Shown one piece after another: positions 3,481 through 60,306 of a stretch of DNA of 64,000 nt (position 1 is its first letter; each line of letters opens with the position of its first letter). The translations under genes and the position numbers were made by a program. This stretch comes from Eledone cirrhosa (lineage: Eukaryota). The notes under the pieces were generated by a model. That model saw only the letters and a list, made by a program, of their open reading frames with translations. It ran no database searches and was not told the origin of the DNA. The stretch covers positions 406,410,001 through 406,474,000 of the forward strand of contig OZ024740.1 in NCBI GenBank assembly GCA_964016885.1, in the 5' to 3' direction.

Positions 3481-3867
3481 CGCGTATTTTTTGCATTTTG
3501 CTTTATTCTTATTCCTGCTCAAGTAATGCAAAGTAAGCTCAGAGTGCCTGTGTGTAGACTTGTGACTATAAGCTTCCAACTGGTCAGGTCTGCACATGTT
3601 ACCATTCGTCTATCACCACAGTATTTCAGTAATAGGACACATGAAGAAAGATGTAAGAGACGTCTATACATCAGGATATTATAGTGGTAAATGCTTGTAC
3701 AACAGGAGTACCACTCTCTGAGCATCCGCAATTGTCCAGTGACATGCTGAAGCAAGTTAACTGGGAGTTTCTTCAACTGCAGGTTTTAAGGAATTTTCTT
3801 CTCACTTAATGACACCCATACATATGACATACACAAACACACACATGCCACTCACTTACACACACTA

Positions 3868-4448: not shown

Positions 4449-4910
4449 ACAATGTCACTGGACCGAGACCTTTGGCGGTACTCAGTAACAGAGAAGACCC
4501 GCCTTACCTAAATACATAGTAAAACCTACTCCAGCCAGTAGGCATCTCTAACAAAATACACCCCGTCCCACCACCACCACCCCCACCCCATCCACACCAC
4601 CCCGTTCTATGTAAAGTTATGTTGGTGCCGCGCCATCCAGGCCGAAACAAATGAGATCGTGTAGGTGTCACGACAAAAAAACACACAGTCCACGCTGTAA
4701 TGTGGCCGTGTAGGCAACACGGTAAAAACCTCCCAGACCCACACTGTAAATGTGGTTGGTGTTAGGAAGGGCATCCAACTGTAGAAAACCTGCCAGACAG
4801 TCCTATGCGAGCAAGACAATCACTCTTGCCTCAAGTGGGACTACCCCCGTCCAAACCCATGCAAGCGTGGAACACGGACGTTAAACGTTGATGATGATGA
4901 TGATGATGAT
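4449..4910 (+). mobile_element. RTE family A, 5'-truncated 3' end with (GAT)n tail
   Basis: Matches 21784-21895 and 51109-51568; ends ggacgttaaacgttgatgatgat. Confidence 0.9.
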
Positions 4911-5447
4911 ACACACACATTTATATATATATATATATATGTATATATATACATATATGTATACACACACATTTATAATATATATATATATACATATATA
5001 TACATATATGTATACACACACATTTATAATATATATATATATACATACATACACATATATATATATATGGGCCTTCCAGTTTCATTTCACATTATATACA
5101 TGTCTGTATATTTTAATAATTTAAAAATTATTTTTAAGTGAACATGATTTACAAAAAAATATTTTTGAGTGAAAGTGACCCAACGGGTCTCGCATGGTCT
5201 AGTTAATACTTAGATGTGGCCACTGTTGTCTTTTGAAAGTGTGGGTACAATTGAAGTTGTTAGTGTGTTGCTGTTTAGATTTATCGTTTCGTTGTTTTCA
5301 TAAGGTTTAGTCGTTTTGACTGAGTGGTGGTGATTGTGGTGGCACTTGATGTTGTTTGGCTTTTTATCGTTTTGATGCTGCTGTTGTTGTTCGTTTTGAT
5401 GTTGATGTTGTAGATATTGGTGTTGGTTCATATATATATATATATAT

Positions 5448-6012: not shown

Positions 6013-6878
6013 AATGGCTGCCCCCTCGTTATCGAGTATGGCCATTGCACGAGGAGAGAAAAAAAAAAAATAATAATAATAATAAATAAATAAAAAATAA
6101 AATAAAAATAAAAAAAAAAGAAATATCTATATATCTATATATATATATATAGACATACACACATACATACACATATACACGCACACACACACACACATAC
6201 ATTAATAACAATAATAATAATAATAACAACAACAATAATAACGACAACAACAATAATAATATACATATACATATATATATACACACACACACATAAGCAT
6301 ATTTATACACACACACACACACGATAGCAACTAACAGCGCTGCGATCAAATGTGGCTTTTTAGCCCAGCCAATGATCTAAAATGTCTTGCACAGAGTCGG
6401 CAACCAAAACATTCACTGGGATAGTCGGCTGTGGTTGGAGTTCATGTACTTTTGCATGTCGCTTGAGCCCTCCTGCTGATTTACATTCTCTACCACATGT
6501 TTAGCAAGCATGATGAGTAGCATCTCCAACAGCAGCCTGGTAGTCAACCACTGGTCTTACTTTATGACTGCGAAGATGACTTTCGAGTCCAGCTTTGCTT
6601 AGGCAGAGTCTCGCACAGACGCTGCATGTCAGCACCATAGGAGGACCCTCGCCATCTGGAAGTGCAACAGCAATGTCCTTCCTCACATCCCGCTTTACTT
6701 TCTCGTATGCGATTCGAGATGCCTCAAAGGCAACTTTTCCCTCATATACAGTCTTTCTCCATTTATTACGATCAGCAGCAATATTTTCCCATGTATCAGC
6801 AGAGATGTTAGCGTCTTTCAGAGAGGCTTTCAAGGAATCCTTATACCTCTTTTTTGGTTTATGTGGCGGTCGTTTTCC
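6013..6878 (-). mobile_element. RTE family C, 5'-truncated (C2H2 fingers + 3' UTR)
   Basis: Encodes [17 protein letters not shown] and [21 protein letters not shown]; homologous to 56131-56905. Confidence 0.9.
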
Positions 6879-7122
6879 ATATATACATACATATATACAT
6901 GCATGCATACATACATACATACCTACATACATACATTTACGTATATATACATATATATGCATACATACATACATATACATACATATATGTATGTATATAT
7001 ACAAATATATATATACATACATATATACGTACATACATGTATATACATATATATATGTATATATACATATATATACATACATACATATATGTATATATAC
7101 ATATATATATACATACATATAT

Positions 7123-7736
7123 GATGGCTGCTCCCTCGTTATCGTGTATGGCCATTGCACGATATACCATTATAAATAATAATTAATTAATTCTATCGTG
7201 CAATGCCTGTGCGTGAAGATATTTTTTAAAGTGAGGAAAGACTGTGCACTGAGCCAATCCCACTCTCTGAACGACAGTAGCTATAACCCGAAAAGAAGAA
7301 AAGATGAACATCATCGGTAACTACTGAGCCGCAGGTTTTATATCGGAGTTATCCCAGTTTCCTGAGTTGCCTTCTCCTAGAAGAATGCCCTGAGAAAGGC
7401 TAGGGGTCCTTCACTCCCAGTGGTTTAACCGCGCGATCGGATGTCCAGCCCGACTATTTCTATGTCTCCGCGCATATACATACACGCATGCATATACACA
7501 TATACACACACATGTACATGTGTATATACATATTTACACACTTTTGGATGGCCGTTGACCCTTATGAGTTCTTCCGCCCTTTTGTCAGGTTTTGTTTTTT
7601 GTCCTGCAGGGTGTCCAAAATCACCCTCCCCACCAAGTAAACTTGGTGGGGTTGCCAGTTTAGTCGCTGACGACCTGACCATGCGACAGGTTGTACTGGG
7701 TTACATGTTACCAGTATCACTCAAGAGAGACCCGAC
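7123..7736 (-). mobile_element. Bipartite non-autonomous derivative of RTE family C (leader + internal microsatellite + 5' UTR + 3' tail)
   Basis: 7194-7473 matches the 5' UTR at 60028-60306. 7123-7164 matches the 3' end at 56131-56168. 7541-7736 is homologous to the leader of family D (18311-18462). Confidence 0.8.
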
Positions 7737-7739
7737 ATA

Positions 7740-8080
7740 TCATCATTTCATTTCATTTTACGTCCGCTTTTCCCTGCTTGCAAGGGTGGGACGGGAACTG
7801 ATTCTGGCTTGATTTTTACAGCTGGATGCCCTTCCTAACACCAACCTCATTTACAGTCAGTGCTGGGTGCTTTTTTGCCGTGGCACCTCCACGACCACTT
7901 TGCAGTGGAATGATATGGATCCCAGTACCTACCATCTCATTTCTACAGCTGAGTAAACTGGAGCAATGTGAAATAAAGTGTCTTGCTCAAGCAAACAACA
8001 CATCACCCAGTCTGAGAATTGAACTCACAACCTTTCGATTGCAAGGCCAATGTTCTAACCACTAAGCCATGTGCCTCCAT
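7740..8080 (-). mobile_element. tRNA-derived SINE with RTE family B-type tail
   Basis: Head has A box TGGCTTAGTGG and B box GAGTTCAATTC. Tail ccgtcccacccttgcaagcagggaaaagcggacgtaa matches 55566-55602. Confidence 0.8.
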
Positions 8081-8088
8081 ATATACAT

Positions 8089-8549
8089 GGTGGTGGCTGC
8101 CAACTCGTTTTCGAGTACGGCCACTACTTTATATCCATGTAGGAGAACCCCTACCGATGCGCTGAACGAGTGTGACTTTTTAGTCCAGCCAGCGACTTGA
8201 AAACTCGGGTACAAACACTACACTTGTGACAATTATAGACACATAGTGTTGGGCCCATGGTACGATGTAACGACAAGTGCAGAGAGATCTTCAGATATAA
8301 AGCAATGCCTGTGCCGTGAAGTTTTTATAGTGAGCAAAGGCACTGCACAAAGCCAGTCCCACTCTCTTAACCAAGATGATATTTACCAAAAAGAATAACA
8401 AGTCAACATCATTGGATACCATCAGGGTTGCAGGTGTTATATCAGAGTTTTCCTTTCTTAGAATTCTGCCTTGACAAAGGCTAAGGGGTCATCTCTCCCA
8501 GTGACTTTGGATGGCCATTGACCCTTAAGAGCTCCTTTGCCCTTTGACA
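8089..8549 (-). mobile_element. Bipartite RTE-derived non-autonomous element, family D (5'-truncated)
   Basis: Homologous to 17896-18353. Confidence 0.85.
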
Positions 8550-8581
8550 TATATACATACATACATACATACATGTATATA

Positions 8582-9321
8582 TCATCATCATCATCACCGT
8601 TTTACGTCCGTGCTTCCATGCTAGCATGGGTTAGACGGGTTGTCCTGTTGTGGGCAGTGTCTGGTCGGCTGACCATGCCTTGCTCATACAGCAACTGATT
8701 TTGGCTTGATTTCTACAGCTGGATGCCCTTCCTAACACCAACCTCATTTACAGTGAGTGCTGGGTGCTTTTTGCCATGGCGCCTACACGTCCACTTTACA
8801 GTGTGGACTGGGTGCTTTTTTGCCGTGGCACCTCCACGACCACTTTGCAGTGGGAGGGTGTGGGGGCATATTATCTATATGCTTCAGCTTGTACTCATGG
8901 GAGGTCGGCTACTCTGTATTACTGTGTGACGCCAGAGGCCACGGTCGTGTGTCATCGCCTTTGAGATGTGAAACTGGGTAAGGTCGGACCCTATCACCTC
9001 CTCCGTGGTCTTCTTCGGTCTCCCCACTCCGCGGCTTCTATTGACTTTTAGTGCTCTACCTTTTTATGCAGCTATCATCCTTCATACGCATCACATGTCC
9101 ATACCAACGCAACTGCCTCTCCTGCACACAACATTTGATTCCTCTTATGCTCAGTCTCTCTCTCAATTCATTTATGCTTTGCCGTTCGCGTATATTACTA
9201 TTAGACATCCATCGGAGCATGCAGGCTTCGTTTCTTTCTAATCTACGTAAGTCTTCCAACTTCAGCACCCAGGTCTCACTACCAGTCTTCCACCTTCAGC
9301 GCCCAGGTCTCACTACCTCAC

Positions 9322-9360: not shown

Positions 9361-9481
9361 GATGGCTGCCCCCTCGTTATCGAGTATGGCCATTGCACAA
9401 GAAAAAAAAAAGAGAAAAAATAAAATTTTCAAAAAAAAAAATTTAAAATAAAATAAAATAAAAATAAAAATAAAAAAAAAA

Positions 9482-11234: not shown

Positions 11235-11270
11235 ATATACATATATATATACATACATACATATATAAAT

Positions 11271-11589
11271 GGTGGCTGCCAACTCGTTTTCGAGTACGGC
11301 CACTACTTTATATCCATGTAGGAGAACCCCTACCGATGCGCTGAACGAGTGTGACTTTTTAGTCTAGCCAGCGACTTGAAAACTCTGGTACAAACACTAC
11401 ACCTGTGACAATTATTGACACATATTGCTGGGACCATGGTACCATGTGACGACAAGTGAAGAGAGATCTCCAGATATAAAGCAATGCCTGTGCCATGAAG
11501 CTTTTATAGTGAGCAAAAGCACTGCACAAAGCCAGTCCCACTCTCTTAACCAAGATGATATTTAACAAAAAAGAAGAACAAGTAAACAT
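11271..11589 (-). mobile_element. Family D bipartite element, 5'-truncated
   Basis: Homologous to 17896-18213. Confidence 0.85.
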
Positions 11590-12674: not shown

Positions 12675-13104
12675 CATACATACATACATACATATATATA
12701 TATATACATATATACATACACATATATATACATATATACATACACACATATATATATATACATATATACATACACATATATATACATATATACATACACA
12801 CATATATATATATACATACATACATACATATATATATACATACATACGACAAGTGCTAAATAGATTGTTTGCCAGAGATCCTAAATCAGTTTATCGCAGC
12901 TTCGGTGGCAAAAGCTCAATCTCTGTAAATGACACCCCTTCAAAAGAACAGGTTGAGAGCTACTGGAGATCTGTATGAGAAACGGATGACGGATTCAACA
13001 GACAAGCTAATTGGCTAAAAGAACTGGAACAGGACTACTGCCAACATGTCCAGACAAAACAATATGACATAGATGGGTCAATACTGGAAACAGCTCTACA
13101 GAAA

Positions 13105-14847
13105 ATGTCGAATAGGAAATCGCCAGGCCCAGACCTCATTACAGGATACTGGTTGAAGAATTTCACTTTCTATCGGCAAGATCTCATACGGCTGTTTACA
13201 GAAACCATTAAGGGCACACAAGAACTGCCCAGATGGTTATCAACTGCCTCTACTCTCCTCATTCCCAAAAATAGCCAAACCACCCTTGCTAAAAATTACC
13301 GCCCAATTGCCTGCCAAAACATCATGTATAAATTATATACTGGGTGCCTTAACCTGTTCTTACAGGATCACTGTGCTACCAACAACATCATAACACCTGA
13401 GCAAGCTGGTGGAAAGAGGGAGGTGTGGGGTTGCATAGATCACCTAACTAACAAAATGATTCAGGAAAAAACAACAAAGAATCGCAGAAACATGACTGTC
13501 GTGTGGCTGGACTATCAAAAAGCATTTGATAGTGTACCTCATGGGTGGATTGTTAAGGCTTTACAGTTAGCTAAAGTCCCACAACCATTGGTAGCTGCTG
13601 TTGAACGCCTGACCAAGGACTGGTACACCAGTTTGATCCTTAGAGGTGAGAAGGAGCAGGTTAAGACTGATAAGATACATTACCAGAAGGGCATCTTTCA
13701 GGGTGATAGCTTGTCAGTACTACTCTTCGTTCTCTCACTGAATCCACTATCTTACCTACTCAGGAAACAAGGTGGACAAAGAAGTTGGCCCAGAAGTATC
13801 TCCCATCTTTTCTTTGTTGATGACCTGAAGTTGTATGGGCCAAATATCAATGACATCAAGAAACAATTGGACCTCATTACACAATTTTCAACCGACATCA
13901 AAATGAAATTTGGTGAGTCCAAGTGTGCATATTTGGCAGTAAAACGTGGAAGAGCTGTGCCCTCCTCTAGAAATTTAGATATGAACGGCCTGACAATACA
14001 ACCTCTGCAGTCAGGTGACAACTACAGATATCTTGGACAGGATGAGAATGTCAGATATGATGGACCCATAAATAAGGAGAGAACCAGAACTGAATACCTC
14101 AGAAGAGTAAAAAAAATATGGTCATCAGAACTGTCAGCATACAACAAATACATTGCCCACAATACCTATGCTGTGCCAATTATAACGCCAACATTTGGCC
14201 TACTGAACTGGTCATTGCAAGAACTAAGTGAGATGGATGTTAGAACTCGTAAACTTCTCAGTGTTACTGGGAACTTTAACATCAATGGTGATGTGGATAG
14301 GCTATACTTCTCACGCAAGGAAGGTGGCCGGGGTCTAAAATCAATATTAACAACATATGAGACCCGGATAGTAACACTGAAGCAACACCTTCAACAGAGG
14401 AAAAAGGTTGGCGACCATCTTGCTCAGGTTTATGAGCATGAAAAAAGAAATATCATTAGAATAGCGACTGATCTGGAGGAGAGATATGGAATAAAGCCTG
14501 ATATAAATCTCTCACCCAGAGAAATCGGAAGATCCTATTCAATGTTCAAACAAGAAAAAAAAATTGACCAATTTACAGAGAAAGTTGTGCATGGATACTT
14601 GAGGCGTAAAACACAGACCATAGAGGGGATAAACCACTCAAAAAGCCTGGCATGGAGTTCCGACAAGTTTATGACATCACACCTTGAGGGATATCTCTAT
14701 GCAATACAGGAACAAGAACTCCCTACCAAATATCTGCTGCACAAAAGAGGAGGGCCAGCAGCTGACAATAAATGTAGGCTATGTAAAACAAAGATCGAGG
14801 ATGTAAGCCACATTGTTGCCAGCTGCGAAAGAATGTCATCTCGCTAA
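13105..14847 (+). pseudogene. R4-type reverse transcriptase and zinc knuckle (stop-interrupted ORF)
   Basis: 580-aa open stretch; TAA at 14845 separates it from the in-frame endonuclease domain. Confidence 0.85.
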
Positions 14848-14856
14848 TACCTCCCC

Positions 14857-15345
14857 ATGAGACACGATGGGATAGCTAGAACTATCTGGAACGCACTTCG
14901 GAAAACAAAATTAACAACAAACGAGGAAGAATATATTGAGACAGATGGCACTAAGGAATACTGGTGGAACCTGAAAATAAAAACTGCCACCAAATTAAAG
15001 CACAACCGGCCTGATATTGTAGTTTGGGACCACACATTGAAAACGTGTTCTGTTGTGGAGATCAGCTGCCCACTTGATGTAAACGTTGTCAGAAAAATAC
15101 AGGAGAAGGAGGACATCTACGGACCATTGATGAGGAGCTTACAAATCCAGTATCCAAGATACACCTTTAGCATCATACCCATCATTATTGGTGCTACGGG
15201 TTATATACCAACCCGCTTGGACCAAAGTATGACCGAACTTGGATTTGCGGACAAAAAGCGCAGCTCCCGAATTCATAGTCTACAAATGGCTGCGATAGCT
15301 GGCACCTTCAAAATATGCAAAACATTCTTGCGATTCAAGGGATGA
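14857..15345 (+). pseudogene. Restriction-like endonuclease (PD..E.K-type) domain of the R4 element
   Basis: [30 protein letters not shown]. Confidence 0.85.
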
Positions 15346-17750: not shown

Positions 17751-17895
17751 CATATATATACATACATACATACATATATATACATACATACATATATATA
17801 CATACATACATATATATACATACATACATATATATACATACATACATATATATACATACATACATACATATACATACATACATACATATACATAT

Positions 17896-18462
17896 GGTGG
17901 CTGCCAACTCGTTTTCGAGTACGGCCACTACTTTATATCCATGTAGGAGAACCCCTACCGATTCGCTGAACGAGTATGACTTTTTAGTCCAGCCAGCGAC
18001 TTGAAAACTCGGGTACAAACACTACACTTGTGACAATTATTGACACATAGTTCTGGGCCCATGGTACCATGTGACGGCAAGTGCAGAGAGATCTCCAGAT
18101 ATAAAGCAATGCCTGTGCCGTGAAGCTTTTATAGTGAGCAAAGGCACTGCACAAAGCCAGTCCCACTCTCTTAACCAAGATGATATTTACCAAAAAGAAG
18201 AACAAGTCAACATCATTGGATACCATCAGGGTTGCAGGTGTTATATCACAGTTTTCCTTCTCCTAGAATTCTGCCTTAACAAAGGCTAAGGGGTCATCTC
18301 TCCCAGTGATTTTGGATGGCCATTGACTCTTAAGAGCTCCTTTGTCCTTTGACAGATTTTGTTTTTAGTCCTGCAGGATGTCCAAAGTCACCCTCCTCAC
18401 CAAGAAACCTTAGTGGGGTTGCCAGTTTAGTCGCCAACGACCCGACCATGAGACAGGTTGTA
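17896..18462 (-). mobile_element. Family D bipartite RTE-derived non-autonomous element (longest copy, about 570 bp)
   Basis: The 5' part is homologous to the family C 5' UTR (cactgggag...ctaggagaagg...gagagtggga...cacaggcattgc). The 3' part encodes a SLAGLKSH remnant and ends in the ggcc.tactcga.aacgag..ggcagcca stem-loop. Confidence 0.88.
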
Positions 18463-18603
18463 GACATATACATATATATATATACATACATACATATACA
18501 TATATATATATACATACATACATATACATATATATATATACATACATATATATATATATACATACATATATATATATATATATACATACATACATATATA
18601 TAC

Positions 18604-18637
<34 letters not shown>

Positions 18638-18729
18638 ACATACATATATATATATACATACATACATATATATACATACATACATATATATACATACATA
18701 CATATATATACATACATACATATATATAC

Positions 18730-18766
<37 letters not shown>

Positions 18767-18807
18767 CATACATACATACATATATATACATACATACATA
18801 CATATAT

Positions 18808-18838
<31 letters not shown>

Positions 18839-18894
18839 CATACATACATATATACATACATACATATACATATATACATACATACATATATATA

Positions 18895-18926
<32 letters not shown>

Positions 18927-18932
18927 CATACA

Positions 18933-21845
18933 TGGTGGAGGGGTGGGTCTGCTAGATTCATTGAGGGTAAAAAACGATGTTATAAGCTTTTCTGGGTGGG
19001 AAACGACGATGGGCTGGGTGGAGTAGGAATCATGGTAGCAGAAAAGTGGGCAGATAAGATAATAGACGTAAATAGAGTGAACGACAGAATAATTAAAATA
19101 CGACTTGTCCTCAATAGAACTACGGTGACAGTAATATCTGCGTACGCACCCCAATCCGGACTGCCCGGCACTATAAAAGACAGATTCTATGAGACACTGA
19201 TGCTAACTACCTCCCAAATATCCGACAGTGACTATATAATTATTGCAGGCGACCTAAATGGTCACGTTGGACAACATTGTGACGGCTACGACGAAATCCA
19301 TGGAGGCTATGGGTTTGGTACTAGAAATGAGGAAGGCTCCAGAATCCTGGAATTCTGTGATGCAAATAACCTAACTATCTGTAACACTAACTTCAAAAAA
19401 TGTGACAATCACCTGATCACCTATAGATCCGGGGAACACACAAGCCAGGTAGATTATATCCTTACCAGAAGACGTGACAGAGTGTCTGTTGTAAACACTA
19501 AATCCCTCTCCCAACATAGACTCATAATTAGCGACCTCATAGTCAGGACGAGACGTACTCGACAGCAGAAGAGGACTATCCTCAGGAGAAAAATATGGAA
19601 GCTAAAGGACCCCACAGCCAGGAATAAATTTCAAAGCATATTACTTGATGCTTTCGACAGTAAGGAAGAACATTTAGAGTCGGACAATATAGAGGGAGAG
19701 TGGGAATTTCTGAAAGCAAACCTGCTGTTGGCGACAGACGAAGTCTGTGGCTGGAGCAGGCCTGTAGGCAGGAGGAGAGTAACATGGTGGTGGAACAGTA
19801 AGGTGGAGGGGTCAATTAAGGCCAAAAAGCAGGCTTGGAAAGTATGGCAGGATGGGGGAAGTAGAGAAGACTATCAAGTGGCCAGGAGGGAAGCTAGGAG
19901 ACAAGTGTACTTAGCAAGAAGGGAAGCTGAGGAAAGAAAGTTCAAGCATGTTCTACAACGCGATGACCAAAAACGTGAGGTGTTCAGGATTGCTAGGCAA
20001 TGCGTCAAGGAAAACCGTGATATTGTCGGGGAGAAGTGTGTACTAAACGACGATGGCACACTTGCCATCACCGACGCTGATAAGAAGGTAGCTTGGAAGT
20101 GTCACTATGAAAGGCTACTAAATAAGGAGAATAAATGGGAGAAAGACAGTCTCCCCCATATTGACCCAATAGGGGGACCAGCAGTGTTAGTCGAGGGGAA
20201 TATAATAAGTAAGGCAATCAAGGATATGAAGATAGGTAAGGCGGCTGGGCCTTCGGAAATAGTTGCTGAGATGCTGAAGGCATCTGGCACGGTGGGACAC
20301 ACCATGGTCACCCGCTTAGTTAACCAAGTCGTACAGAATGGGGTTGTTCCGAAGGACTGGCATAGCAGCATCATCGTTAACTGTTATAAGGGTAAAGGAG
20401 ACGCCCTAGATAGGAGTAATTATAGAGGCATTAAATTAATCGACCAGGTCATGAAGGTCACGGAAGAAGTAATAGCACAACTAATCAGAGAGAGAATTGA
20501 CCTAGATGAAATGCAGTTCGGGTTTGTGTCAGGCAAAAGTACCACAGACGCTCTTTTCATTGTACGACAACTACAAGAGAAGTACCTAGCTAAAGGTAAA
20601 CCCCTCTACTTAGCTTTTGTCGACTTGGAGAAAGCCTTCGACAGAGTCCCCCGCTCCATTATCTGGTGGGCTCTTAGAAAACTAGGCGTTGACGAATGGC
20701 TTGTGAGAGCTATACAAGCCATGTATAAAGAAACAGTCAGCAAGGTTAGAATTAACAACGAATATAGTGAAGAGTTTAGCGTAAAAGTTGGCGTCCATCA
20801 GGGCTCTGTTCTCAGCCCCCTACTATTTATTATTGCCCTTCAGGCTATAACAGAGGAGTTCAAGACCGGCTACCCATGGGAACTCCTATACGCAGACGAC
20901 CTGACACTCATAGCGGAATCAATGGCCGAGCTAGAGAAGAAATTCCAAACATGGAAGCACGGCCTAGAATCAAAAGGCCTTAAAATTAACCTGGCTAAGA
21001 CTAAAGTTCTAGTTTGTAGAAAAGAAAATAAGGCGGCGGTCCCTTCTGGGAAATGGTCGTGCTCGGTGTGTAGGAAAGGCGTAGGTAGAAACTCCATTTT
21101 ATGTCCTAAATGCAAAGTATGGGTGCATAAAAGATGTAGTGGGATCACAGGTAAGCTAACTAAGAACATAGATTTTACATGTGGCCGGTGCTCTGTTGCA
21201 ATAAATAGCAGCAAGTGCCCACAAAATACTAGCTCTTTCAATTGCGCAGAGGGTTCTATAGAAATAATGGACAGTTTCCGTTACCTGGGTGATAAAATCA
21301 GCAGTGGGGGAGGGTGCTCTGAAAGTACAGTAGCTAGAGTCAGAACTGGTTGGAAAAAGTTCAGAGAGCTTATACCACTATTAGCTGCTAAAGGGTTCTC
21401 CCTAAAAATGAAAGGCAGGTTGTACAATGCCTGCATACGAACAGCAATGTTGCATGGCAGTGAGACCTGGGCATTGTGTGCAGAGGATATACGCAGACTA
21501 GAGAGGAACGAAGCTTGCATGCTCCGCTGGATGTGTAACAGTAATATACGTGAACGGCAAAGCATAAACGAACTAAGGAAAAAATTAGAAATAAGAGGGA
21601 TCAGATGTTGTTTACTCGAGAGAAGGCTACGTTGGTATGGACACATGATGTGCATGAAAGTCGATAGCTGTATAACAAAGTGCAGGGCAATAAAGATAGA
21701 CGGTAGCCACGGAATAGGCAGACCTAGAAAAACCTGGGACGAGCTGATAAACTCCGACCTCACACACTTACACCTCTCCAAGACAATGTCACTGGACCGA
21801 GACCTTTGGCGGTACTCAGTAACAGAGAAGACCCGCCTTACCTAA
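18933..21845 (+). CDS. RTE ORF: APE endonuclease + reverse transcriptase + internal PHD finger (N-terminus missing; frame open from the truncation point)
   Basis: [60 protein letters not shown], and CSVC..CPKC..HKRC..CGRC. Confidence 0.85.
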
Positions 21846-54574: not shown

Positions 54575-55614
54575 TACAAGCCATAACAGAGGAGTTTAAG
54601 ACTGGCTGTCCATGGGAACTTCTCTATGCTGACGATCTGGCTCTTATGGCAGAATCAGTAGAGGAGCTAGAGAATAAATTCCGGCTATGGAAACAGCAGT
54701 TGGAAGCAAGAGGACTGAGAGTAAATCTAGCTAAGACAAAAGTGTTGATGAGTAGAAAAGAGGACAAAACCCTGATTCCGTCAGGGAAATGGCCATGTTC
54801 GATATGCAGAAAAGGAACTGGCATAAATTCTATAAAATGCACACAATGCAGGTCCTGGGTACACAAGAGATGTAGCGGGATAGCAGGCAAACTAACAGGT
54901 AGGGAGAAATATGTATGCAGTAGATGTACAGGGAAATTAGACAGTAGAAGTCGCACTGATAGACACATTTTTCAAATGCGAGAGGGCGCTATAGAAGTGG
55001 TGGATAGCTTCCGGTACCTAGGAGATCAGATTAGCATGGGAGGAGGGTGTTCCGAGGCCATAGTATCTAGAATAAGGACGGGTTGGAAGAAGTTTAGGGA
55101 GCTGCTTCCTCTGTTGACGAAGAAGGGTTTCTCCCTGCGTACGAAAGGCCGGTTGTATGATGCCTGTGTGAGGAGCGCGATGCTGCATGGTAGTGAGACA
55201 TGGGCAGCAACCGCAGAGGATATGCGACGGCTGGAGAGAAATGAGGCAAGCATGCTCCGTTGGATGTGCAGTGTAAATGTGCGTGAACGACCCAGCATAA
55301 ATGTGTTGAGAGAGAAACTGTGTCTGAGAGGGATAGAATGTAGTGTACGGGAGAAAAGACTGAGGTGGTATGGACATGTGATGCGCATGGAGGATGACCG
55401 ATGGGTGAAGAAGTGCCAGGAAATGCCAGTTGAGGGAAGACGTGGTAGAGGTAGACCACGAAAAACATGGGCGGAGGTGGTGAGAACAGACCTCAGATCA
55501 TTGAAGCTCACGGTGGAGATGACGAGGGACCGTGACGAGTGGAGAGATGCTGTGCTGAATAAGACCCGTCCCACCCTTGCAAGCAGGGAAAAGTGGACGT
55601 AAGATGATGATGAT
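54575..55614 (+). mobile_element. RTE family B, 5'-truncated (YADD + PHD + C-terminus), ORF running into the tail stem-loop, (GAT)n end
   Basis: [34 protein letters not shown]; diverged from family A; frame open to 55602. Confidence 0.9.
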
Positions 55615-56130: not shown

Positions 56131-56178
56131 GATGGCTGCCCCCTCGTTATCGAGTATGGCCATTGCACAAAAAAAAAA

Positions 56179-56230
<52 letters not shown>

Positions 56231-56309
56231 GCAATAATAATAATAACGACAACAACAATAATAATATACATATTCATATATATATACACACACACGCACG
56301 CACATAAGC

Positions 56310-56347
<38 letters not shown>

Positions 56348-59300
56348 GATAGCAACTAACAGTGCTGCGATCGAATGTGGCTTTTTAGCCCAGCCAATGA
56401 TCCAAAATGTCTTGCACAGAGTCGGCAACCAAAACATTTACTGGGAATAGTCGGCTGTGGTTGGAGTTCGTGTACTTTTGCATGTCGCTTGAGTCCTCCT
56501 GCTGATTTACATTCTCTACCACATGTTTGGCAAGCATGATGAGTAGCATCTCCAACAGCAGCCTGGTAGTCAACCACTGGTCTTACTTTATGACTACGAA
56601 GATGACTTTCGAGTCCAGCTTTGCTTAGGCAGAGTCTCGCACAGACGCTGCATGTCAGAAACATAGGAGGACCCTCGCCGTCTGGAAGTGCAACAGCAAT
56701 ACCCTTCCTCACGTCCCGCTTTACTTTCTCGTGTGCGATTCGAGATGCCTCAAAGGCAACTTTTCCTCATATACAGTCTTTCTCCATTTATTACGATCAG
56801 CAGCAATATTTTCCCATGTATCAGCAGAGATGTTAGCGTCTCTCAGAGAGGCCTTCAAGGAATCCTTATACCTCTTTTTTGGTTTATGTGGCGGTCGTTT
56901 TCCTTTAACCAACTCTCCATAGAAGAGTTGTTTTGGTATTCTAGAATCCTTCATCCTGGCAAGGTGACCACTCCAACGGAGTCGCTGCTTAAGCACAAGA
57001 GCTTCTATACTGTCACACATAGAGCTTTCCAAAATCTCGACATCACTGATGTGGTCCCTCCAGTGAACGCCATGTATCCGTCTGAGACACATCTGATGGA
57101 AACGCTCCAATTGCTTAAGGTGGCGTCGATATGTGACCCAGGTCTCGCAGGCATAAAGAAGACAAGAGAGTACACATGCCCTGTACACCTTTACCTTTGT
57201 CCTCCTGCATATGTCTCGCCGACCCCAGAGTCGCCTTTCTAGCTTTCCGAAAGCATCACTTGCTTTCCTAATCCTAAGTGAGATTTCACTGTCAAGGTTG
57301 CCGTATCGATTGACAGTGCTTCCCAGGTAGACAAACTGATCAACCACTCCAAGTCGTTTGCCATACACATAGATGTTTGGTTCAGTGTACTGCCTACCAG
57401 GTGCAGGTTGGTACATGACGACGGTTTTCTTGAGACCTACAGTCAAACCCAGGGCAGTGCAAGCGTCAGAAAATACATTCAAAATGTGCTGCATATCACT
57501 CTCTGTGTGCGCTACAAGATCGCAATCATCTGCATACAAGAGGTCTCTTATGACTGATGTAAATACTTTTGTCTTCGCAGCAAAGCGCCTGATGTTAAAT
57601 ATGCTGCCTGAGGTTCGATATCGGATGTAAACACCATGCTCGCAATTCCTGAATGCAATACAGAAAACCATTGCAAAGTATATGGCAAACAGGGTCGGTG
57701 CTGGAATATCCCCCTGTTTCACTCCATTTTTTTTTACTGAGATAGGCTCCGACATGTTACCTCCGACATTAACCCAAGCCTTCATGTCGTCATGGAAAGA
57801 CCTAACTAAAGCAAGGAACTTATCAGGGCAACCAAGTTTCTGGAGAACCTTCCATAATGCATCTCTGTTGACAGTATCGAAAGCCTTTGTCAGATCGACA
57901 AAAACCTGATACAGATCCAAGCCCTGTTCAATGCACTTCTCCTGGAGCTGTCTAGCTGAGAAGATCATATCAGTAGTGCCGCGTCCAACACGAAAACCAG
58001 ATTGACTTTCAGGAAGGACACAATCTGCAATGTGTGTCAGCAGACGGTCCAGAAGCACCCTACATAAAACTTTCCCCACGACAGAAAGCAATGATATACC
58101 TCTGTAGTTCCCACAATCATTCCTGTTACCCTTTCCCTTGTACAAGACCACCATTACTGCATCTCTCCAGTCCTCAGGCACGGATTCATTAGCCCATATC
58201 CTTCCAAACAGAGAGTGAAGATGTTGCAGGAGTCTCTCACCACCATATTGTAGGAGCTCAGCATGTATGCCATCCATACCTGGAGATCTTCCACTGTTCA
58301 GCTTCGAAATAGCCACTGCAACCTCCACAAGTGTCGGAGGCTCTGCGAGAGCTACTTTCACAGGACTTTCCGGAATGAGATTGAGGAAATCTTCACTGAC
58401 GACAGACGGCTGATTCAAAAGATCATCAAAGTGCTCCCGCCACCTTCGTAGAATTCCCTGTGAGTCACGAAGAAGTTCTTTGCCATCCTTGCTGCGAATC
58501 GGTGTCACCAGAGAAGAAGACGGTCCATAAACCTCACGCAAGAGACTGTACAACAGCTTTGTGTTATTGCAATCAGACGCAGTTTGTATCTCACCAGCCT
58601 TCTCACTCCACCACTGATCCTTCATCTGAGAAAGACTCCGCCTAACACGTGATTTTACATCCCTGAGCTCCTCATGCAACGTATTCCTCTCCTGTGGTCT
58701 TGCCGTCAAGTAGCGTGACAGAGCGCGCCTCTTATCAGCCAACAAGTCATCTATATGCACATCTTTCTCATCAAACCAGTCCTGATGTTTTCTCTGCACC
58801 AATCCCAGAACACGTCTGCCTACATCATAAACCGACTTTTTAAGGGTCGGCAATCCTCACCAAGATCTGCAGCCTGCATCTCTTCTTCCAATGTCCTCTT
58901 CACATTTTTATCCTTAAGACGAGCAGCATTCAATCTTTTGGGCAGGGTAACACCAGGAGCCCGGATTTTACGTTTGGTGATTAGATTCACTTTTGCGCGT
59001 ACCAGGCGGTGGTCCGTCCAGCACTCAGCTCCACGAAGAACACGAACACACCGCACATCCTGTCTGTCACGCATCCTGACTAGGACGTAGTCCAAAAGAT
59101 GCCATTCCTTAGATGCAGGATGCATCCATGTGGTCTTGAATTTGTTCTTTTGTTGGAACATGGTGTTGGTAACACACAGATCCAGCTCCTCACACATCTG
59201 CAGCAAGAGCATACCATTGCTGTTACACTTTCCCACCCCATGCCTTCCGATTACATTCCATGTGTTAAAATCCCTACCCACTCTAGCATTAAAGTCACCA

Positions 59301-59910
59301 AGCACGATGACTTTGTCTGCCTGAGGGATATTTCTTAAAACACCTTTCAAGGCATGGTAAAAGGACAGTTTTTCTTCATCGACAGAATTCATAGTTGGAG
59401 CATACACACTCACCAGGGTAGCATATCTTCCCTTGTCCAGCGGAACTCTCATGGACATAAGACGCTCACTAATCCCCACTGGGAATTCTTCCAATTTATT
59501 CACCAGTACAGTCTTAACAGCAAATCCTACCCCAGCCTCTCTTCTGGTTCCTTCATCTCTTCCTTTCCAGAAGAATGTATATTCTCCACAAAATTCCGTA
59601 AGATGACCATCTCCAGCTAACCTCGTCTCAGACAAAGCCACGATGTCAAGATCGTAACGTCGAAGCTCCCTCGCAACAAAAGCGGTCCTTCGTTCAGGAC
59701 GCTCCAAAGAATCCCTGTCAAGCAGCGTCCGTACGTTCCAGCAGCCAAGACTAAATGCCCTGTTTGGCTCTATTACAATGGCACGATGACGGGCGGGCCC
59801 AGGTTGTGATAACTTGGGGCCCCTGCCCTTATTGCCAATGATCTTTTTTGTTCCAGAACCCAAATTGGCAATTATCTCGTTTACATTGTTCTGGAACATC
59901 ATTGAATTGG

Positions 59911-59942
<32 letters not shown>

Positions 59943-59968
59943 AGAAAAAAAAAAAAAAAGTAATAATA

Positions 59969-60003
<35 letters not shown>

Positions 60004-60306
60004 ACACTATTAATAATTATTAATGCACTCGTGCAATGCCTGTGCGTGACGAATATTTTTAAAGTGAGGAAAGACTGTGCACTGAACCAATCCCACTCTC
60101 TGAGCGACAGTAGCTATAACCCGAAAAGAAGAAAAGATCAACATCATCGGTAACTACTGAGCCGCAGGTTTTATATCGGAGTTAACCCAGTTTCCTGAGA
60201 TGCCTTCTCCTAGAAGAATACCCTGACATGGGCTAGGGGTTCTTCACTCCCAGTGGTTTAACTGCGCGATCGGGCATCCAGCCCGATTATTTCTATGTCC
60301 CCGCGC
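56131..60306 (-). mobile_element. Near full-length RTE (BovB-like) family C LINE
   Basis: 5' UTR, APE (GCWNVRTL, ALSETR, VYAPT, GDFNARVG, TDH), RT (NYRGISLL, FVDLTKAFDTV, GVKQG, LLYADD), three C2H2 fingers, and a simple-repeat-rich 3' UTR with terminal stem-loop. Confidence 0.93.
56356..59902 (-). pseudogene. RTE family C ORF (APE-RT-3xC2H2) broken by two frameshifts (about 58850 and 56765), possibly sequencing errors
   Basis: Consecutive ORF pieces 58820-59902, 56721-58853 and 56356-56712. Sister copies have ttttccctcat where this copy has ttttcctcat. Confidence 0.85.

Follow-up and report, generated by a model that had tools for sequence, protein, structure and literature searches.

Predicted, Covarying Pairing between the 5' and 3' Ends of RTE Retrotransposons and Its Putative Role in Template Recognition

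Introduction

Retrotransposons of the RTE clade move horizontally across animals and fill ruminant, marsupial, reptile, and cephalopod genomes. Why the short interspersed elements (SINEs) that depend on them keep a piece of the 5' untranslated region (UTR) together with the tail is an open question; in the accessible portions of Kojima (2018; PMC5786205), such bipartite derivatives are said to arise "for unknown reasons," and ribozyme or transcription ideas are offered. The question is raised again by a 64,000-nucleotide stretch of the Eledone cirrhosa genome (contig OZ024740.1, positions 406,410,001 to 406,474,000; hereafter the window). It holds a full-length autonomous RTE long interspersed element (LINE), here called family C, 3' fragments of C, a non-coding derivative of about 350 nt (mini), and copies of a further derivative, family D. 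An earlier note on this DNA had proposed that in all three families a segment of the 5' UTR pairs with the segment just before the terminal hairpin, and that this long-range helix, here P1, circularizes the RNA and explains why parasites of the LINE keep both ends. A helix of this kind offers a concrete and directly testable answer. We find that a selected 5'-3' helix in RTE elements is very probably real, and we put forward template recognition as its putative role.

Results

Complementary Arms in the Window

All the arm segments quoted in the earlier note were recovered where it had placed them (table 1). In mini, the two arms form a perfect 12-bp helix closing a 29-nt loop, and in family D they form 15 pairs, three of them G.U. 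For family C, the quoted arms are exact 11-bp complements; however, the 3' arm in question (at 6043) lies in another, 5'-truncated copy. Eleven full-length C copies have a readable 3' end, and 6 of them do carry both 11-bp arms in cis. These represent an older subfamily (95-96% identical to the window copy), with a spacing of about 3.85-3.97 kb between the arms, which insertions raise to 4.1 and 4.4 kb in two copies; the five young copies (98-99% identical) have a 10-bp form with one G.U pair. None of 300 shuffles reached the P1 energy of the full C copy, mini, or D, and in whole-element folds of mini and D the P1 pair probabilities are 0.92-1.0 (0.51-0.90 for the first pair).

The claim that family D departs from Watson-Crick pairing by G.U only is correct for the family state; single copies, in contrast, decay irrespective of pairing. 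Over 65 D copies, 957 of 975 arm cells are paired. Among the variant arm cells, 25 keep and 17 break pairing in D, as against 12 and 25 in mini, and these copy-level changes look neutral, as expected after insertion. The D arms show more A>G than T>C changes (20 vs. 5), but editing was rejected as the cause, since this bias does not differ from that outside the arms (p=0.32 for D and p=0.23 for mini). Covariation among C, mini, and D alone is modest, because the first six bases of the 5' arm are identical in the three families, but it becomes strong once other lineages are added.

One Layout in Five Families

We searched the 3.0-Gb genome and found 37,817 exact matches to CACAGGCATTGC, the motif that closes the 5' module, versus 35 for a reversed control. 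Five families here (C, mini, D, E, and F) share a common layout, composed of a 5' UTR hairpin (H5), an A-rich linker, and the 5' arm, followed at a distance by the 3' arm, a terminal hairpin (P2), and a repeat tail. The arms occupy a fixed place between these conserved flanks. Family E makes up most of 2,002 motif matches, with a P1 of about 12-16 bp including bulges and a compensated lower stem in its terminal hairpin; family F (116 motif matches) has a P1 of 11-12 bp. Both retain P1 with new arm sequence.

Family C encodes domains PF03372/PF14529 and PF00078 plus C2H2 fingers, with one open reading frame (ORF) of 1174-1212 amino acids in 7 of the 16 copies that reach into it, and its tail is a (CAT)n tandem repeat with no poly(A). 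By eye, its 5' module and 3' end resemble those of AviRTE, RTE-3_AMi, and WALLSI; the reverse transcriptase (RT) tree covered unnamed relatives only. The family is probably active now or was so recently, because its young copies (L256, L257, L259, and L262) are 98-99% identical and have open ORFs of 1194-1212 amino acids.

Mini, D, E, and F consist of 5' and 3' parts of a LINE only, and have no coding capacity. Mini, D, and E have each been amplified as a unit with one junction: alignments spanning 92% of the reference stretch include 54 distinct copies of mini, 74 of D, and 21 of E. Genome searches gave at least 40 copies of mini at 96-98% and at least 40 of D at 98%. The mini tail, also (CAT)n, lies inside a microsatellite. 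Since its distal arm differs despite 92% identity to the 5' end of C, mini probably derives from a sister lineage of C, judging from sequence comparison. No autonomous parent of D, E, or F was found among the loci fetched for this work. A reading of the derivatives as SINEs headed by transfer RNA (tRNA) or 5S sequence was rejected: the head is the LINE's own 5' end, and an Rfam scan of the C 5' end was empty. The scan of the C 5' end together with 20 outside loci gave no match either, hepatitis delta virus-like ribozymes included, although Rfam may not model these.

As the earlier note had maintained, the deletions fall inside the helix. Mini, D, E, F, and a deletion copy of C (L221) all break between the arms; L221 breaks directly after base 10 of the 5' arm and restarts 560 nt upstream of the 3' arm. 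Counting published SINEs assessed by eye from partially accessible sources, deletions reduce the loop to a minimum of 4-6 nt and leave the arms untouched. In the non-coding parasites the true 5' end is replaced but H5, the two arms, and P2 are all retained, which argues that the helix is needed by an RNA that makes no protein. The deletion families thus bear out the idea that parasites retain both ends, but the idea does not extend to every element (see Discussion). In three mini copies (L018, L022, and L027), another SINE is inserted in opposite orientation in the A/U-rich P1 loop.

A second RTE-type group of short elements is also present (8551-8839 (-), about 7753-7910 (-), and 4449-5069 of the window; L056, L068, L072, L089, and L256), with the tail of a LINE fragment that ends at 55602. 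Six of its nine forms fold in the order 5' hairpin, A-rich linker, helix, and terminal hairpin.

Covariation across RTE Lineages

Outside relatives were obtained by protein alignment as 88 loci from metagenome and genome contigs. We inspected 32 near-full-length loci, as well as L153, L174, and L200 from the motif scan. Both ends are readable in 17 outside elements, whose proteins have a median identity of 45% and fall into three deep groups in a quick tree. These 17 form part of a set of 22 elements used for cofolding; L133, whose 3' end is duplicated, entered the fixed-window duplex test only. We left out L143 and L149, which are truncated within P2 although their arms form 9 pairs by eye, and L160, which belongs to the family of L159. 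Further loci, among them L137, L142, L154, and L166, were excluded because either the 5' module was missing or the 3' end could not be read. The 5' anchors were set by eye on the conserved motif after the sequences had been seen, and automatic 3' anchors, wrong in 4/22 and about 5/22 elements in two runs, were left uncorrected.

In fixed-window duplexes of 16 elements, cognate arms reach a mean of -14.65 kcal/mol versus -7.56 for non-cognate arms (sd 3.1), and the cognate partner is the best in 10 of the 16 rows. None of 200,000 permutations reached the cognate value; such permutations do not fully model relatedness, but near relatives had been collapsed and the arms are saturated. An ungapped 8-bp test with automatic anchors on 16 lineage representatives gave 6.9 cognate versus 5.3 non-cognate pairs (0/200,000), with the same outcome under two anchor rules; when the 5' windows were shifted by 20-60 nt, 4.2-5.1 pairs were obtained. 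Arm identity between lineage representatives is 27%, and 7 of the 8 arm columns show 4-6 standard pair types each. Upon cofolding, the 5' arm pairs with the 3' arm in 22/22 elements. The proposal of a long-range helix therefore stands up to comparison of cognate with non-cognate arms across deep RTE lineages, and the helix is seen in published RTE LINEs and SINEs as well (below).

In most outside relatives (L133-L174), the part of the P1 loop that separates the arm from the ORF contains extra conserved 5' UTR blocks, one of them an inverted repeat, GAGCAG...CTGCTC; family C has an A/U-rich microsatellite there instead. RTE contigs from eight prokaryote genome records (L213-L220) probably represent animal contamination, and no relatives were found in viral contigs.

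The Predicted Helix in Published RTE Elements

We examined published consensus sequences from the accessible parts of the supplements of Kojima (2018; PMC5786205) and Suh (2016; PMC4844689, data 5), with all pairs counted by eye, not computed. BovB has 10/10 pairs (about 813-822 with about 3797-3806), and BovA2 has 11 pairs with one compensated change. In the alligator, RTE-3_AMi shows 10/10 pairs over 3.6 kb and RTE-11_AMi 7+5 pairs, and SINE2_Gav, the SINE of the latter, has a compensated form with a 5-nt loop at the published junction. The wallaby WALLSI1 has 9/10 pairs and a 6-nt loop at its junction; the platypus MonoRep87A and MonoRep87B, 8 and 11 pairs; and the bird ManaSINE1, 7 pairs with a 4-6-nt loop, in two species with different sequence. 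RTE1_LA shows 8+7 pairs, coelacanth and butterfly SINEs 5-6, and SINE2-2_ACar 4 only. The evaluation covered SINEs other than those with exchanged tails (ERE4B, EbuSINE2, and squid SINEs). WALLSI, MonoRep87, and the AviRTE SINEs carry a piece of 5' UTR that corresponds to the H5 hairpin region. The tail of MonoRep87A/B, labelled "unknown 3'" in the same supplement (PMC5786205), is by eye like the 3' end of L140 and pairs with the RTE 5' part.

Structure Model

The RNA is modelled in the order H5, linker, P0 5' strand, P1 5' arm, ORF or deletion loop, P1 3' arm, P2, P0 3' strand, and repeat tail, in which P0 would be a closing helix of 2-3 bp. P1 and P2 are well supported. P2 lies directly before the tail in the 22 elements, with changing pairs; in the mini copy of the window it carries two private weakening changes, base 7145 being different in nearly all contigs. 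H5 is alignable in 21/21 elements having upstream sequence, and its consensus fold (17 rows) reaches -6.9 kcal/mol in the sense versus -0.5 in the antisense direction, with several pair types per column. In a hand-set register, P0 pairs in 22/22 elements through six pair types (13 GG/CC, 4 GU/AC, 2 AG/CU, and one each of GG/CU, GA/UC, and GC/GC).

Discussion

The most likely role of the helix is template recognition by the RTE RT through a composite site made from both RNA ends, to which we give a probability of roughly 0.55 on evidence that is sequence-based and computational. H5, P1, and P2 would together form the site where the RT picks its template, and an RT bound there would start copying at the tail. 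If only RNAs with both ends are good templates, parasites must keep both ends. A shorter loop would make the helix local and easier to form, so that bipartite derivatives would be favored; moreover, if the RT stays bound at the junction, it could skip the loop and thereby generate them. In the accessible portions of the respective papers, proteins of stringent LINEs bind the 3' stem-loop (PMC4176376), and engineered RTE-1_MD templates carry both cognate UTRs (PMC13708176). The "circularization" of the earlier note is admissible only in the sense of a non-covalent cyclization: P1 may form across 3-4 kb in a 4-kb RNA in vivo, and bringing the 5' module next to the putative RT-binding hairpin may be its purpose. 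A more specific version, which we hold only tentatively, is that in animal RTEs (BovB, AviRTE, RTE-3_AMi, and lepidopteran types) the RT recognizes a split three-way junction of 5' UTR and 3' end, reset by a ribosome terminating in the 3' arm, and that such a mechanism is unpublished.

Several observations weigh against template recognition or against the helix behind it. A single C copy (L239) and three of the nine forms of the second RTE-type SINE, all short, have no 3' arm and no middle helix, respectively. A forecast for a further family, G, fixed in writing ahead of its search, was well met in two of eight old copies, partly in three, and failed in one, with two uninformative. Against shuffles, P1 is weak in L133 (26/300), L139 (52/300), L144 (213/300), and family F (35/300). 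Only in D, E, and L159 is the 5' arm unsurpassed as a partner of the 3' arm; most full-length elements contain other windows that bind it equally well or better, and a protein or co-factor must thus be assumed. The antisense control fails to separate the strands for most outside elements, and the count of 17 G.U versus 6 A.C is biased because the score counts G.U. In the minimum-energy fold of one full-length C copy of 4,198 nt, the 5' arm was paired with another segment, which is weak evidence either way because 4-kb folds are unreliable. P0 has a pair probability of about 0.01 (ViennaRNA) in a register set by eye, which blind MAFFT does not reproduce for every row, so that the three-way junction of P0, P1, and P2 is put forward as a hypothesis. 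Finally, plant RTEs reportedly switch their 5' UTRs, and what Au-like SINEs have in common with them is the 3' end only, according to the accessible portions of bioRxiv 10.1101/2022.11.04.512097 and PMC6007223; the helix may therefore not hold clade-wide.

Could the pairing have no function at all? Complementarity arising by chance, common descent, or an inverted repeat in the DNA whose halves are homogenized by template switching would suit the short helices, the several weak cases, the copy-level variation with no sign of selection, and the anchors set partly by eye. Nevertheless, this very improbable explanation is already largely refuted by the permutation and shifted-window controls and by arms only 27% identical between lineages; in addition, bulges and G.U pairs are unlike the products of copying, and the same helix recurs in published families as far as their supplements are accessible. 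Coupling to translation is more probable than that, though we still consider it unlikely. The helix could loop an uncapped or non-polyadenylated RNA for translation, or act as a switch melted by the terminating ribosome so that an RNA receives the protein just made from it (cis preference), with parasites mimicking it to sit near ribosomes. In 14 of 17 outside elements the stop codon indeed lies within or next to the 3' arm, 23-41 nt short of the element's end, and the elements end in simple repeats with no poly(A). However, such an overlap may merely reflect a short 3' UTR, the stop codon of family C lies about 190 nt upstream of the arm, and the helix is retained in non-coding derivatives and in SINEs transcribed by RNA polymerase III.

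Two further roles appear less plausible still. P1, P2, and P0 might clamp the 3' end against 3'-5' decay or help export, mobility gaining through RNA level only; the structure adjoins a short repeat tail in 22/22 elements and is kept in non-coding copies, but a local hairpin would suffice for this with no 5' partner, and the retention of H5 and the linker with the arm is left unexplained, making RNA protection rather improbable. We judge a late-step role slightly less probable again, in which the helix would keep the template's 5' portion close to the target site for completion of the complementary DNA, 5' joining, or second-strand nicking. A precedent exists in the 5' RNA of Bombyx mori R2, as proposed in the accessible part of PMC12503042, and the 5' end is complete in many C copies, 24 of 30 loci continuing into the ORF. 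Yet the RT must unwind P1 within the first ~45 nt, at least about 280 nt separate the arm from the 5' end, and the arm is retained by SINEs that swap their 5' end for a tRNA or 5S head.

Flavivirus genomes are cyclized by end-to-end pairing and copied by an RNA-dependent RNA polymerase. Pairing between RNA ends is already known, from Ty1 and RNA viruses, and what would be new is its extension to non-LTR (long terminal repeat) retrotransposons. In Ty1, the CYC5/CYC3 sequences are likewise short complementary stretches near the ends of an RNA of several kb, required for copying (PMC7969010, in its accessible portion), but Ty1 is an LTR element with tRNA priming and strand transfer, whereas RTE is a non-LTR element with apurinic/apyrimidinic endonuclease (APE) and RT, copied by target-primed reverse transcription, its helix abutting the terminal hairpin and tail. 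Both RNA ends also act in the insertion of B. mori R2, which has bipartite derivatives too; in the accessible part of PMC12503042, however, the R2 5' RNA and 3' UTR bind the protein separately, base pairing of the two is not mentioned, and conservation of the 5' motif is denied. As for stringent LINEs, P2 is a covarying hairpin before the tail like the 3' stem-loop of ZfL2-1/2 (PMC4176376) and the hairpin of plant RTE and Au-like SINEs (PMC6007223); that signal is local to the tail in the portions accessible, while RTE adds an adjacent second helix that needs a 5' UTR strand. Published bipartite, ORF-absent RTE elements and RTE-mobilized SINEs (Bov-A, MAR4/WALLSI3, RTESINE, ManaSINE, and SINE2_Gav; PMC5786205) resemble mini, D, E, and F in joining a 5' UTR part to the 3' end; the accessible portion of that paper contains neither the word "stem" nor pairing between the parts, whereas here the arms are predicted to pair.

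Pairing between 5' and 3' ends of RTE RNA is absent from the accessible portions of PMC5786205, PMC7245038, PMC4844689, PMC6007223, PMC13295347, PMC3747384, PMC13708176, and PMC9115989, and we found no description of it in the literature searched, patents and subscription journals lying outside its coverage; for that reason we lean only modestly toward regarding it as unpublished. A search of the PDB for RTE protein structures returned none, only L1 and R2. If true, template recognition through both ends would give LINEs their first example of a template check involving two ends and a reason for bipartite RTE SINEs, as well as a design rule for RTE-based gene-insertion templates. RTE-1_MD is under development for gene insertion, its templates carrying both UTRs and being tuned by screening (PMC13708176, in its accessible portion), and a pairing rule would guide their design. 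Annotation would also gain, as the "unknown 3' end" of platypus MonoRep87 becomes readable as an RTE end paired to its own 5' part.

Other Features of the Window

Table 1. Coordinates of the RTE elements and their structural parts in the window.
Feature	Position (strand)	Description
Mini element	7121..7473 (-)	Bipartite non-coding RTE LINE derivative; ~300 nt of 5' UTR + last ~45 nt
H5, mini	7230..7264 (-)	5' UTR hairpin upstream of the arm; conserved
A-rich linker + CACA motif, mini	7208..7229 (-)	Between H5 and 5' arm; from alignment
P0 5' strand (GG), mini	7206..7207 (-)	Proposed short closing helix; inferred only
P1 5' arm, mini	7194..7205 (-)	
P1 loop, mini	7165..7193 (-)	29 nt, A/U-rich, deletion junction inside; stands for ~3.9 kb including the ORF
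P1 3' arm, mini	7153..7164 (-)	
P2, mini	7130..7152 (-)	Terminal hairpin: 3-bp lower stem, internal loop, 4-5-bp upper stem, tetraloop
P0 3' strand (CC), mini	7126..7127 (-)	Proposed; adjoins repeat tail; inferred
Family C, full-length autonomous RTE copy	56131..60306 (-)	APE + RT + C2H2 fingers; two frameshifts
P1 5' arm, family C	60028..60038 (-)	H5 at 60063-60097
P1 3' arm, full-length C copy	56161..56170 (-)	10 pairs, one G.U; young subfamily state
P1 3' arm, 5'-truncated C copy	6043..6053 (-)	11-bp Watson-Crick form; further variant at 9391-9401
Family D bipartite element	17894..18462 (-)	5' module + ORF C-terminal remnant + 3' end; 5' limit approximate
P1 5' arm, family D	18097..18111 (-)	H5 at 18133-18167
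P1 3' arm, family D	17926..17940 (-)	Followed by P2 at 17903-17925
Further D copies	about 8081-8552, 11237-11589, 41041-41568, 43480-43973	Five D copies in all

The window contains four other non-LTR RT ORFs, at 12979-15345 (+), 18414-21845 (+), 24386-27523 (-), and 29849-33162 (-): one with a restriction-like endonuclease-type C-terminus, one distant RTE-like (about 27% to C), and two that are CR1/L2-like by eye. A nested stem, which might act as a ribozyme or promoter, is possible in the first ~45 nt of C (60240-60306 (-)) and of mini (7410-7473 (-)), composed of an outer GCGCG pairing and an inner 7-bp hairpin, with no match in Rfam.
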